Sequence record: PV295200.1 | Length of the DNA stretch: 64,000 nt | Strand: one strand, 5' to 3' | Origin: Escherichia phage vB_Eco_BCPEco_001 | Shown: positions 31,576-44,086 of the stretch, piece after piece | Layout of the letters: each line of letters starts with the position of its first letter | Position numbering within the stretch: the first letter of the stretch is position 1 | Notes under the pieces: model-generated | Seen by the model: the letters and a program-made list of their open reading frames with translations, nothing else | The model's database searches: none | Told to the model about the DNA's origin: nothing | Made by a program: the position numbers and the translations under genes

Positions 31576-31938
31576 ATGAAAGCATATCAAATTCTTGAAG
31601 GCACACATAAAGGTACTATTTATTTTGAAGATGGTATTCAAGCACGAATTATTGTCTCTAAAACCTTTAAAGAGGACTCTTTTGTAGACCCAGAAATTTT
31701 CTATGGTTTGCATGCCCGTGAAATTGAAATTGAGCAACAGCCTACAGTTAAAATTGAAGGTGGTCAACACCTGAACGTTAACGTTCTGCGTCGTGAAACT
31801 CTGGAAGATGCAGTTAAGCATCCGGAAAAATATCCGCAGCTGACCATCCGTGTATCCGGTTATGCAGTTCGCTTTAACTCTCTGACTCCGGAACAGCAGC
31901 GCGACGTTATCGCTCGTACCTTTACCGAGAGTTTGTAA
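31576..31938 (+). CDS. autonomous glycyl radical cofactor (GrcA/YfiD-like) protein
   Basis: 120 aa; C-terminal about 64 residues ([60 protein letters not shown]) carry the glycyl radical motif RVSGY and match E. coli GrcA as recalled; this part uses GC-rich host-like codons. Confidence 0.8.
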
Positions 31939-32698: not shown

Positions 32699-32728
32699 GT
32701 TTACTTTTCCTCTTGACTGTGGTATAAT
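32699..32728 (+). promoter_or_regulatory. early promoter upstream of regB
   Basis: GTTTAC, 18 nt, TG-g-TATAAT. Confidence 0.55.
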
Positions 32729-32755
32729 TTTTCTATCAGTTAAGAGGAGAATAAC

Positions 32756-33217
32756 ATGACTATCAATACAGAAGTTTTTATCCGTCGAAATAAGCTTCGT
32801 CGTCACTTTGAGTCGGAGTTTCGTCAAATTAACAATGAGATTCGTGAGGCATCAAAAGCAGCAGGGGTCTCATCGTTTCATCTAAAATATTCTCAGCATC
32901 TTCTTGATCGTGCAATTCAACGGGAGATTGATGAGACATATGTTTTTGAATTATTCCACAAAATAAAAGACCATGTTTTAGAAGTTAATGAATTCCTGAG
33001 TATGCCTCCGCGTCCTGACATTGATGAGGATTTTATTGATGGGGTTGAATACCGTCCTGGACGTTTAGAAATCACAGATGGAAATCTTTGGCTTGGATTT
33101 ACAGTTTGTAAACCTAATGCGAAGTTCAAAGACCCGTCGCTTCAATGCAGGATGGCAATTATCAATAGTCGTCGTTTACCAGGAAAGGCTTCTAAAGCAG
33201 TAATTAAAACTCAATGA
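32756..33217 (+). CDS. regB: site-specific endoribonuclease RegB
   Basis: 153 aa, the T4 RegB size; sequence recalled as RegB-like; position between denV-side ORFs and tk as in T4. Confidence 0.6.
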   Translation: MTINTEVFIRRNKLRRHFESEFRQINNEIREASKAAGVSSFHLKYSQHLLDRAIQREIDETYVFELFHKIKDHVLEVNEFLSMPPRPDIDEDFIDGVEYRPGRLEITDGNLWLGFTVCKPNAKFKDPSLQCRMAIINSRRLPGKASKAVIKTQ

Positions 33218-33224
33218 GGTAAGC

Positions 33225-33770
33225 ATGAGAAAAGCACTACTCGCTGGTCTATTGGCCATTTCAATGATGGCACATAGCTCCGAGCATACTTTCAGTAATG
33301 TCCAACTCGATAACATGCGTTACGCGTATCAATTCGGGGAACAATTTTCTAAGGATGGAAAATATAAAACACACAAAAACATCCACAAGAGTGGATTAGG
33401 TCATATAATGGCAGCCATTTTATGGCAAGAAAGCTCTGGCGGAGTTAATTTAAAATCTAAACCAAAGCATCACGCCTACGGAATGTTCCAAAATTATTTG
33501 CCTACTATGCGAGCGAGAGTTAAGGAACTTGGTTATAATATGACCGATGCTGAAATAAAAAGAATGTTGAATAAACGATCCAATTCAGCTTCCTGGGCGT
33601 ACATTGAACTTTCTTATTGGTTAAATATACATAAGGGCGATATAAGAAAAGCAATATCCTCTTATAATTCGGGATGGAATGTTAAAGCAGGTTCTAAATA
33701 TGCTTCTGAAGTCCTAGAAAAGGCTAATTACCTTAAAAATAATAAACTTTTGGAAATAGTAAATGACTAA
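33225..33770 (+). CDS. secreted protein with lytic-transglycosylase-like motif
   Basis: 181 aa; N-terminal signal peptide (MRKALLAGLLAISMMAHS); ILWQESSGG resembles the catalytic E-S motif of family GH23 transglycosylases. Confidence 0.4.
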   Translation: MRKALLAGLLAISMMAHSSEHTFSNVQLDNMRYAYQFGEQFSKDGKYKTHKNIHKSGLGHIMAAILWQESSGGVNLKSKPKHHAYGMFQNYLPTMRARVKELGYNMTDAEIKRMLNKRSNSASWAYIELSYWLNIHKGDIRKAISSYNSGWNVKAGSKYASEVLEKANYLKNNKLLEIVND

Positions 33771-34104
33771 AATTTTGGTTTTATGTATAGGATTAATTTC
33801 ATTTTCTGCGTTAGCAGATACATCATATACTGAAATTAGAGAGTATGTAAACCGTACTGCAGCGGATTATTGCGGGAAAAATAAAGCATGCCAAGCTGAA
33901 TTTGCGCAGAAATTAATATATGCATATAAAGACGGAGAAAGAGATAAATCAAGCAGATACAAAAATGATACATTGTTAAAACGATATGCTAAAAAGTGGA
34001 ATACCTTAGAATGTTCAGTTGCGGAGGAGAAAGATAAAGCCGCTTGTCATTCAATGGTTGACCGTTTAGTAGATTCTTATAATCGAGGATTGAGTACTAG
34101 ATGA
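33763..34104 (+). CDS. secreted cysteine-containing protein
   Basis: 113 aa; signal peptide MTKILVLCIGLISFSALA; four Cys. Confidence 0.4.
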   Translation: MTKILVLCIGLISFSALADTSYTEIREYVNRTAADYCGKNKACQAEFAQKLIYAYKDGERDKSSRYKNDTLLKRYAKKWNTLECSVAEEKDKAACHSMVDRLVDSYNRGLSTR

Positions 34105-34580
34105 TTGTAAAATATATCAAGGGCGATATTGTCGCCCTATTTCTTCAAGGTAATATTATTGCGCACGGGTGCAATTGCTTCCACACAATGGGCTCTGGCG
34201 TAGCAGGTCAATTAGCAAGAGCCTATCCCAAAATTTTAGAAATAGATAAAACCACTACCGAGTACGGTTCTCGTGATAAATTAGGCGATATGTCTATTGT
34301 TTTTAAACATAGTCCTACGGGATTTGGTATATGCTATAACCTGTATACACAATACGAACCGGGTCCTAATCTTGATTATGGTGCTTTAGTAAACTGCATG
34401 ATAGAATTAAATCTACAGGCAGAAACCCTTTTGTTTAAACCAGTAATTTACATTCCACGCATAGGTTGCGGTATTGCTGGCGGCGATTGGGATAAGGTTT
34501 CTAAATTAATCGACATGTTTACTCCTGATATTGATTTAATAGTGGTGGATTATGAAAGTACATTACCCGCATCCGTTTGA
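34101..34580 (+). CDS. macro-domain protein (ADP-ribose binding/processing fold)
   Basis: 159 aa; AHGCNCFHTMGSGVAGQLARAYP and IPRIGCGIAGGDWDKV resemble the two glycine-rich phosphate-binding loops of macro domains. Confidence 0.5.
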   Translation: MIVKYIKGDIVALFLQGNIIAHGCNCFHTMGSGVAGQLARAYPKILEIDKTTTEYGSRDKLGDMSIVFKHSPTGFGICYNLYTQYEPGPNLDYGALVNCMIELNLQAETLLFKPVIYIPRIGCGIAGGDWDKVSKLIDMFTPDIDLIVVDYESTLPASV

Positions 34581-34764
34581 TCCTAAAAACAAAGTGGAAA
34601 TTATTCGTCAATGGGAACGCATTTGCCGTACTAAATGCCCAATTAATAGTCCACATGATGTAGATAAAGACTATATTGGAACATTCGTTGAATATACCTT
34701 TATTGATAGGAAAGGTCGTAAACAACATGTAGAAGAATATTGTTTAAAGGTTACATGGTTATGA
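34552..34764 (+). CDS. hypothetical protein
   Basis: 70 aa ORF overlapping the macro-domain gene end. Confidence 0.35.
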   Translation: MKVHYPHPFDPKNKVEIIRQWERICRTKCPINSPHDVDKDYIGTFVEYTFIDRKGRKQHVEEYCLKVTWL

Positions 34765-43684: not shown

Positions 43685-44086
43685 ATGAAACAGTTGATAA
43701 TTAAAAGATTGAATTTATTGATATGTTGTTTATGTATAGTAATTGCATATGGTTATTACGCAATTAATGATTATATGCATTATAAAGATTATGATGTTAC
43801 TGTAGTTAATACCCTTACAGGAACTCAAGGAAAGGGGTCTAGTTTATCGTTTATTGCCGTATATGAACTCAAAGACGGTTATAGATTTAGCGAATATATT
43901 TCCCCAGAGATGTATTCATCAATAGAAAAAGGCGATAATATTACTGTAAGTTTACGTCCTTTCGACGTAAAACAGACATGGTTTGATAATATTGTTTGGT
44001 TCTTTGGAATGGCATTAGTTCAATCTATATGTGGTACTTATATAGTTTGTTCAATCTTATTCCGCGTAATTGGTAAAATTGAGTGA
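43685..44086 (+). CDS. membrane protein
   Basis: 133 aa; N-terminal signal-anchor LLICCLCIVIAYGYYAI and C-terminal hydrophobic helix. Confidence 0.45.
   Translation: MKQLIIKRLNLLICCLCIVIAYGYYAINDYMHYKDYDVTVVNTLTGTQGKGSSLSFIAVYELKDGYRFSEYISPEMYSSIEKGDNITVSLRPFDVKQTWFDNIVWFFGMALVQSICGTYIVCSILFRVIGKIE

Follow-up and report, generated by a model that had tools for sequence, protein, structure and literature searches.

The vs.1-vs locus

We analyzed a stretch of 64,000 nucleotides of Escherichia phage vB_Eco_BCPEco_001 (sequence record PV295200.1; the whole stretch is referred to as the window), focusing on two open reading frames (ORFs) at positions 33225-33770 and 33763-34104. The initial annotation had delimited the two ORFs in 33225-34104 and pointed to the T4 ORFs lying between regB and tk. 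The coordinates are exact, agreeing with the genes called in RefSeq for Shigella phage SHFML-11, and the alignment identified vs.1 and vs in that T4 interval. Both ORFs are already catalogued genes of T4-type phages. Altogether, we regard it as probable that Vs.1 is an exported transglycosylase of the GH23 family and that Vs is an exported helical protein with four cysteines.

A 2-kb query (32700-34700) was 100% identical to SHFML-11, placing the window in Tequatrovirus, and showed 95-99% identity to nearly 500 further phage records, which were for the most part of Tequatrovirus as well. The gene order on the + strand of SHFML-11 is regB, a gene for a hypothetical protein, that for a 'valyl tRNA synthetase modifier', that for a macro-domain 'phosphatase', several small ORFs, tk, and rI. 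The positions of the features discussed below are given in Table 1.

Vs.1 is related to lytic transglycosylases

The assignment of Vs.1 to the SLT domain is already known, being both published and present in GenBank annotation. Nolan et al. 2006 (PMC1524935) stated the similarity of vs.1 to SLT, citing earlier PSI-BLAST matches of the 2003 T4 genome review. The labels on the protein vary among databases: some GenBank records carry 'SLT domain' or 'periplasmic secretion signal', the NCBI pipeline labels identical copies of Vs.1 as 'transglycosylase SLT domain-containing protein', and UniRef gives 'Uncharacterized 20.7 kDa protein in vs-regB intergenic region'. The searchable literature yielded no experimental work on Vs.1.

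Vs.1 of the window matched the Pfam profile SLT (PF01464) with 25.1 bits (gathering score, 21.3) and an E value of 1.4e-5, the match extending from residue 61 to 154 and covering profile positions 16-101 of 117. PF01464 is also precomputed on several Vs.1 homologues. The initial annotation had tentatively likened ILWQESSGG to the catalytic Glu-Ser region of GH23 lytic transglycosylases, and this proposal is borne out by the Pfam match above the threshold, the invariance of E69, and the motifs standing in register with those of known enzymes. E69 did not vary among 24 close homologues, nor among 18 distant ones, and E69-S70 aligned with QES of Escherichia coli Slt70, ES of MltE, NES of EtgA, and RES of goose-type lysozyme, as did Y147-N-S-G150 with AYNAG of EtgA and goose-type lysozyme. 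The alignment of the 18 sequences, which share 29-73% identity and represent Straboviridae, Ackermannviridae, Felixounavirus, and one Vibrio phage, had invariant positions including E69, G86, Y147, N148, G150, and Y159. The GH23 motifs were present in 74-76 of the 76 full-length Vs.1 homologues, the counterparts of G-L-M-Q and A-Y-N-x-G in all 76. In a profile search of the sequences in PDB, EtgA and goose-type lysozymes were the best matches of Vs.1, and the catalytic Glu and YNAG fell on their counterparts; hhalign of the Vs.1 alignment placed WQES on ARQES and YGMFQ on SGLMQ of E. coli Slt70.

A tblastn search detected Vs.1 in 2,013 phage records, including T4-like phages of enterobacteria, Aeromonas, and Acinetobacter, as well as Kuttervirus, Felixounavirus, and a Vibrio phage. 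In PHROGs, Vs.1 fell into an unannotated family, its secondary matches being lytic tail proteins and endolysin domains, and neither Vs.1 nor Vs had a match in NCBIfam. The AlphaFold model of Vs.1 had a predicted local distance difference test score (pLDDT) of 88.2 and a predicted template modeling score of 0.83, with E69-S70 at the end of a helix spanning residues 59-70. The SLT fold expected in the initial annotation was recovered with this model, as the best Foldseek matches were GH23 lytic transglycosylases or lysozyme-like enzymes; the top 20 in PDB were all GH23-type (MltD, the Ralstonia chitinase Ra-ChiC, Slt/LtgA, and the phi6 P5 lysin) with Foldseek probabilities of 0.87-1.0. Judging from the profile, the motifs, and the predicted fold, the membership of Vs.1 in GH23/SLT is well supported.

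The distant Vs.1 homologues outside Straboviridae, namely those of Kuttervirus SJ2 (L008, 1453-2070), Felixounavirus RPN213 (L009, 1501-2049), and Vibrio phage VPALA (L011, 1453-1959), possess three to four cysteines in the precursor, including a mid-domain pair C-x5/6-C, and the T4-type Vs.1 has none. In Felixounavirus, vs.1 sits between rIIB and pnk, near a spanin gene.

Predicted signal peptides of Vs.1 and Vs

Export was assessed solely by a rule-based test, which demanded a basic residue followed by a 10-residue window with a mean Kyte-Doolittle hydropathy of 1.6 or higher, a core free of acidic residues, and a small-x-small site at a permissible distance. The N-terminus of Vs.1 reads MRKALLAGLLAISMMAHS up to the predicted cleavage site, followed by SEHTF, and that of Vs reads MTKILVLCIGLISFSALA, followed by DTSYT. 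Both comprise a basic n-region and a hydrophobic core of 12-14 residues, none of them acidic, and in both residue 18 is the last before the small-x-small cleavage point; by the same rules no charge block follows the predicted cleavage site in either protein. The signal peptides proposed for both ORFs in the initial annotation hold by this test, and their signal-like nature extends across both families: a signal-like N-terminus was found in 75 of the 76 full-length Vs.1 homologues and in 75 of the 79 full-length members of the Vs family, with the sequence of the segment itself diverging in both. The homologues failing the test resemble truncated gene calls. Among the 104 non-nested ORFs of at least 60 amino acids in the window, only four passed the test (vs.1, vs, rI, and ORF 43685-44086). 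rI, which we take to be a periplasmic or signal-anchor-release (SAR) protein, served as the positive control. Thus, the signal is not regarded as a chance product of the AT-rich genome.

In the AlphaFold models, pLDDT was low at residues 1-20 of Vs.1 and below 50 at residues 1-3 and 10-18 of Vs. The annotation of Acinetobacter phage Apostate independently assigned a 'putative periplasmic secretion signal' to Vs.1 and to the next ORF, which corresponds to a remote Vs. No localisation data for Vs.1 or Vs were found in the searchable literature. Vs.1 and Vs are predicted to be exported via Sec with cleavage of the signal. The predicted mature Vs.1 comprises 163 amino acids (18.8 kDa; isoelectric point, ~9.6) and contains no cysteine; it would therefore be a soluble protein and not a lipoprotein.

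The remaining ORF that passed the test, 43685-44086 on the + strand, encodes 133 amino acids with a strongly hydrophobic N-terminus (MKQLIIKRLNLLICCLCIVIAYGYY...) and five cysteines, and its product is probably a membrane-anchored protein.

The Vs family

Vs belongs to a phage-confined family represented by PF26829 and PHROG 1256. When 1.84 billion representatives were searched exhaustively with a profile, eight proteins were recovered, all of which were phage Vs, and no cellular homologue. A word-seeded profile search found 82 relatives, all 82 with precomputed PF26829; in the Pfam copy that we scanned, PF26829 was returned neither for Vs of the window nor for any of 11 aligned relatives. The family extends to Pseudotevenvirus, Gelderlandvirus-type, and Acinetobacter phages at 24-34% identity. 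Vs of the window is 97% identical to T4 Vs, which is 115 amino acids long via a two-residue insertion within the signal peptide.

Vs contains five cysteines. C8, which resides in the signal peptide, is not conserved, and the other four are invariant in the aligned sequences (Table 1). Exactly four cysteines in the mature region were found in 75 of the 79 full-length members, with the spacing C-x5/6/10-C ... C-x8/10-C. The initial annotation had described the second ORF as a Cys-containing periplasmic protein, and the two halves of this description are reflected in the four invariant cysteines of the mature protein and in the signal-like N-terminus, the location being a prediction. The AlphaFold model of Vs, built on an alignment of six sequences, had a pLDDT of 79 and four helices (residues 20-37, 41-60, 69-84, and 89-111). 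C37 and C43 flank the first loop, and C84 at the end of helix 3 and C95 early in helix 4 bracket the third loop. The predicted mature Vs comprises 95 amino acids (11.0 kDa). M98 is the only other Met of Vs, so no signal-less isoform is evident.

Profile comparison of Vs with Pfam and the sequences in PDB gave nothing better than an E value of 0.036, which we regard as noise. Foldseek found no recognisable fold in PDB (best probability, 0.25) and only Vs entries in BFVD. DUF1311 proteins are helical and carry four conserved cysteines. We rejected the possibility of Vs being a DUF1311/LprI-type or other lysozyme inhibitor, as the DUF1311 chain 3gi7 had a Foldseek probability of 0.03-0.05 and no other inhibitor family was matched. 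The possibility of Vs being a lipoprotein with Cys8 in LVLC as the lipidated residue was rejected as well: residue -1 is Leu, the hydrophobic core before Cys8 is too short, and Cys8 is not conserved.

Genomic context and linkage of vs.1 and vs

Table 1. Positions of the features at the vs.1-vs locus in the window.
Feature	Position	Strand	Basis
Promoter-like site TTTACT-17-TATAAT with upstream TG, just 5' of regB	32700..32728	+	Consensus scan, 10/12 matches
regB, site-specific endoribonuclease (upstream neighbour)	32756..33217	+	Pfam REGB_T4, E 1.4e-68; RefSeq annotation
vs.1 coding sequence, 181 amino acids	33225..33770	+	Protein 100% identical to T4 ORF 61.4 (= vs.1)
Vs.1 signal peptide, residues 1-18, predicted cleavage between AHS and SE	33225..33278	+	n/h/c-region and -3,-1 rule
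ILWQESSGG of Vs.1, residues 65-73 (Glu69 codon, 33429-33431)	33417..33443	+	E69 invariant
G86-M-F-Q89 of Vs.1, counterpart of GH23 G-L-M-Q	33480..33491	+	G86 invariant, F88/Q89 nearly so
Y147-N-S-G150 of Vs.1, counterpart of GH23 A-Y-N-x-G	33663..33674	+	Y147, N148, G150 invariant (18 sequences)
8-nucleotide overlap of vs start codon and vs.1 end, ATGACTAA	33763..33770	+	Sequence
vs coding sequence, 113 amino acids, annotated valyl-tRNA synthetase modifier	33763..34104	+	PHROG 1256, E 5.2e-40
Vs signal peptide, residues 1-18, predicted cleavage between ALA and DT	33763..33816	+	n/h/c-region and -3,-1 rule
Four invariant Cys of Vs: C37 (33871-33873), C43 (33889-33891), C84 (34012-34014), C95 (34045-34047)	33871..34047	+	11 sequences
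tk.4, macro-domain gene, overlapping the vs stop codon	34101..34580	+	Pfam Macro, E 1.3e-7

The promoter-like site upstream of regB is likely an early promoter for a regB-vs.1-vs-tk.4 transcript. Because this site is of the sigma-70 type and the genes downstream are tightly packed on the same strand, early co-transcription of vs.1 and vs with regB appears plausible. The 8-nucleotide overlap possibly couples the translation of vs to that of vs.1.

vs.1 and vs lie side by side or overlap in Tequatrovirus, Mosigvirus, Dhakavirus, Gaprivervirus, Mosugukvirus, a Klebsiella phage, and Acinetobacter phage Apostate. Two genes intervene between them in Pseudotevenvirus, and in Kuttervirus, Felixounavirus, Tulanevirus, and a Vibrio phage, no vs is found next to vs.1. 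This pattern of adjacency suggests a connection between vs.1 and vs and does not establish it. In Apostate (L007, 1441-3287), the genes for Vs.1, the remote Vs homologue orf134, orf133, orf132, and rI are consecutive and all five are annotated with a periplasmic secretion signal; this run looks like a cluster of small periplasmic proteins beside the lysis-inhibition gene.

Downstream of vs, tk.4 has been named AdfM and protects T4 from the DarTG2 defence system (anti-DarTG2 factor; preprint 10.1101/2025.11.20.689424), and its RefSeq label remains 'phosphatase'. A perfect G+C-rich hairpin, AGGGCGATATTGTCGCCCT, lies at 34120-34138, 20 nucleotides into the tk.4 coding sequence, and was flagged on both strands in the terminator scan; it could modulate the translation of tk.4 or, beyond vs, set the limit of a transcript or of a processing product. 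Upstream of regB, vs.6 (31576-31938, +) encodes a GrcA-like autonomous glycyl-radical cofactor with the sequence RVSGYAVRF, and RefSeq lists it as GrcA. The likeness of vs.6 to GrcA was already pointed out by Nolan et al. 2006.

Fitness of vs.1 and vs insertions

In the HIDEN-SEQ transposon data of T4, reported in a 2025 preprint, both genes were non-essential, with TA sites hit at 46 of 52 in vs.1 and 30 of 32 in vs (10.1101/2025.11.20.689424, Extended Data Table 6). In the LB control, the mean counts per site were 22.6 for vs.1 and 26.6 for vs, as compared with 178.6 for regB, 289.6 for tk.4, and 652 for vs.3 (10.1101/2025.11.20.689424); following competition in LB, insertions in vs.1 and vs were thus ~7- to 29-fold rarer than those in these flanking non-essential genes. 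In M9 glucose relative to LB, vs was the most strongly depleted T4 gene, and the knockout plaques poorly on M9 (10.1101/2025.11.20.689424). The log2 change from LB to M9 was -2.19 for vs (adjusted p 0) and -0.87 for vs.1 (p 0.0055, adjusted 0.155), and in the clinical E. coli strain CFE299, vs.1 changed by -1.20 (adjusted p 0.015) and vs by -1.04, the latter not being significant (10.1101/2025.11.20.689424). The text of the preprint treats only vs in M9. The fitness signature common to vs.1 and vs and not seen in their neighbours could reflect a shared pathway.

Proposed picture and alternative interpretations

We propose the following picture, in which the biological roles of Vs.1 and Vs are what we infer from the data above. 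vs.1 and vs would probably be transcribed together with regB from the early promoter upstream of the latter. Both proteins would be synthesised in precursor form, each with a cleavable Sec signal peptide, and would reach the periplasm of the infected cell. In Vs.1, Glu69 of W-Q-E-S would act as the single catalytic acid/base, and G-M-F-Q and Y-N-x-G would line the substrate groove. Exported in this way, Vs.1 would gain access to murein independently of the holin, and its most likely contribution would therefore be the remodelling or pre-weakening of the sacculus during infection, not the role of an endolysin. In Vs, the four cysteines, which flank the loops between helices 1 and 2 and between helices 3 and 4, would most likely pair up in the periplasm as two disulfides whose formation depends on DsbA.

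Several points weigh against this picture. The export of both proteins is a rule-based prediction from sequence, and the transglycosylase activity of Vs.1 is deduced from sequence and a model. The Foldseek E value of Vs.1 was 5.6e-3 at best with TM-scores of about 0.45-0.55 (0.44-0.54 for the top 20 matches), and the profile matches to the PDB sequences had E values of 0.07-0.3 (0.073 for EtgA), which are not significant alone. The hhalign statistics were weak for the single E. coli sequences (E values of 0.2 for Slt70 and 0.023 for MltE), and the single-sequence searches of PDB with Vs.1 and Vs returned noise only (centrin and a ribosomal protein). Insertions in vs.1 could lower the expression of vs through polarity or through a loss of translational coupling, and the two genes would then be depleted to a similar degree without sharing a function. 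The four clustered cysteines of Vs could form a cytoplasmic zinc site. Finally, an exclusively periplasmic Vs does not accommodate its binding to the cytoplasmic valyl-tRNA synthetase.

Since the second ORF is annotated as vs, which the initial annotation missed, reading its product as periplasmic conflicts with the accepted function. It is a real possibility, albeit one that we hold short of probable, that Vs is the cytoplasmic 10-kDa peptide (tau) acting on the host valyl-tRNA synthetase, with an N-terminus that does not lead to productive export, or a part of the protein being retained, and with cysteines that bind metal. Purified tau is ~10 kDa, which is nearer to the mature 11.0-kDa form of Vs than to the 13-kDa precursor; on the other hand, a match to the processed size implies that signal peptidase, which faces the periplasm, has acted. 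This function is the standard annotation in hundreds of genomes, the defect of vs specific to minimal glucose medium fits an aminoacylation-related role, and PMC8076793 describes Vs as binding the host valyl-tRNA ligase, citing Muller and Marchin 1975 and 1977. Against it, 75 of 79 members, including those of only 24-30% identity, retain a signal-like N-terminus although the sequence of this segment drifts, and this is how a functional signal peptide behaves. Moreover, the basic n-region puts the C-terminal domain outside the membrane, M98 offers no evident start for a signal-less isoform, and in the searchable literature we found no account tying vs mutations to ORF 33763-34104. His-tagged Vs from the cytoplasm was insoluble (PMC8076793), which fits an exported protein dependent on disulfides. 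In the searchable literature, we found no paper that discusses the conflict between the predicted export of Vs and its cytoplasmic target, nor any that mentions the signal peptide. We regard this mismatch between the predicted location and the textbook function as the point to take further, and the classical function as a serious rival.

That Vs, for decades annotated as modifying valyl-tRNA synthetase, in reality acts in the cell envelope as a Sec-exported, disulfide-bonded periplasmic protein, possibly alongside the Vs.1 transglycosylase, is a tentative and rather doubtful answer to the same question. In that case, either the classical tau modification of valyl-tRNA synthetase would be encoded elsewhere, or the association would have arisen after cell breakage; either way, the defect of vs mutants in minimal medium would concern the envelope and not translation.

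We consider it unlikely that vs.1 and vs make up a single functional module in which Vs is devoted to Vs.1 in the periplasm, be it as an activator or, in the way Spackle acts toward the gp5 lysozyme, as an inhibitor or immunity protein. Both proteins are predicted to be periplasmic, their genes are adjacent or overlapping in several genera, and insertions in both, not in their neighbours, are depleted in LB and drop further in M9 and CFE299. A precedent exists in the same phage, since Spackle is described in PMC7677548 as a periplasmic early T4 protein inhibiting a peptidoglycan hydrolase. Nevertheless, vs.1 lacks an adjacent vs in the phages listed above and is two genes apart from it in Pseudotevenvirus, and the overlap is not specific to the pair, as vs overlaps tk.4 too. 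A toxin-antidote model predicts that insertions in vs.1 are neutral; they were depleted, which disfavours the idea that Vs neutralises a toxic Vs.1. The Vs model also resembles known lysozyme inhibitors neither in fold nor in sequence, its best PDB probability being 0.25.

As for the chemistry of Vs.1, it is quite improbable that the protein is a muramidase, hydrolyzing murein as goose-type or EtgA-type lysozymes do, or a catalytically dead murein binder. Both chemistries occur within GH23, and EtgA and goose-type lysozymes were the best profile matches among the sequences with solved structures. However, MltD and Slt were the top fold matches, and no Asp was conserved between E69 and G86, the region that holds the accessory acid in goose-type lysozymes and EtgA (in 53 of 77 Vs.1 homologues, the segment from the catalytic Glu to G-x-F-Q was entirely devoid of Asp). 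Because no second acidic residue is conserved behind the catalytic Glu, the transglycosylase mechanism with a single acid is favoured. Vs.1 shares its E-S, G-x-x-Q, and Y-N-x-G motifs with family 1 lytic transglycosylases, and the invariance of these motifs argues against a dead enzyme. Vs.1 is most likely a lytic transglycosylase, which would cleave the bond between N-acetylmuramic acid (MurNAc) and GlcNAc to leave a 1,6-anhydroMurNAc end, not by hydrolysis.

It is very unlikely that the N-terminal segments are uncleaved anchors or SAR domains, tethering the proteins to the inner membrane until depolarisation releases them as in rI and SAR endolysins: the h-region of Vs.1 is rich in Ala, Gly, and Ser (ALLAGLLAISMMA) and SAR-like in composition, and rI, located 2.4 kb downstream, passes the same export test, but the cores of 12-14 residues are too short for a membrane span and good small-x-small sites follow the core in nearly all homologues.

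Should Vs.1 prove active as a transglycosylase, a third murein-cleaving enzyme would enter the periplasm early in infection by T4-like phages, Ackermannviridae, and FelixO1-like phages, acting independently of the holin, endolysin e, and the gp5 tail lysozyme. The conflict over Vs is the more useful point, as a family-wide signal peptide and four invariant cysteines are hard to square with binding to a cytoplasmic synthetase. Knowing where Vs resides would either put right a long-standing annotation that hundreds of phage genomes have inherited or bring to light a protein with the uncommon feature of a dual location.

Comparison with known systems

Vs.1 resembles family 1 of GH23, namely the catalytic domain of Slt70, MltE/EmtA, and MltD, in the SLT profile, in Glu-Ser, G-x-x-Q, and Y-N-x-G standing in register, in the lysozyme-like all-helical fold, and, by prediction, in the periplasmic location. 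In contrast to these cellular enzymes, Vs.1 is encoded by a phage, apparently in an early operon, and is a single small soluble domain lacking a lipobox, LysM, and the superhelical U/L domains. It also bears an N-terminal helix of its own, F-S-x-x-Q-L-D-N-x-x-Y-A-Y-x-F-G, which was not seen in the cellular enzymes, and is ~15% identical to any solved structure.

EtgA, which belongs to a type III system, shares with Vs.1 the size range of 150-190 amino acids, a Sec signal, and a single GH23 domain, and the alignment of the two spans the whole domain. EtgA has an accessory Asp and combines features of lysozymes and transglycosylases. VirB1, IpgF, and P19 of plasmid R1 are presumably also small specialised transglycosylases of secretion systems. 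Unlike EtgA, Vs.1 carries no conserved Asp at that place and is not linked to an envelope-spanning machine.

Regarding Vs, the lysozyme inhibitors Ivy, PliG, MliC, LprI/DUF1311, and Spackle are likewise small exported proteins (Vs by prediction), and differ from it in that no sequence or fold similarity is detectable.

Among phage proteins, Tgl of Kayvirus, which infects Staphylococcus, is, according to PMC7150955, similar to Vs.1 in having transglycosylase motifs, in being exported through host secretion, and in being distinct from the endolysin. This comparison is by description only; the host of Kayvirus is Gram-positive, and the same source likens the motifs of Tgl to those of IsaA and SceD (PMC7150955).

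T7 gp16 and phi6 P5 are GH23-type proteins of phages and were among the Foldseek matches of Vs.1 (ranks 19-25 and 40-43). T4 relies on the gp5 lysozyme at entry and on gp e at lysis. T7 gp16 and phi6 P5 are virion-borne and work from the exterior during entry, or else at lysis, whereas Vs.1 has a Sec signal and would be made early inside the infected cell.

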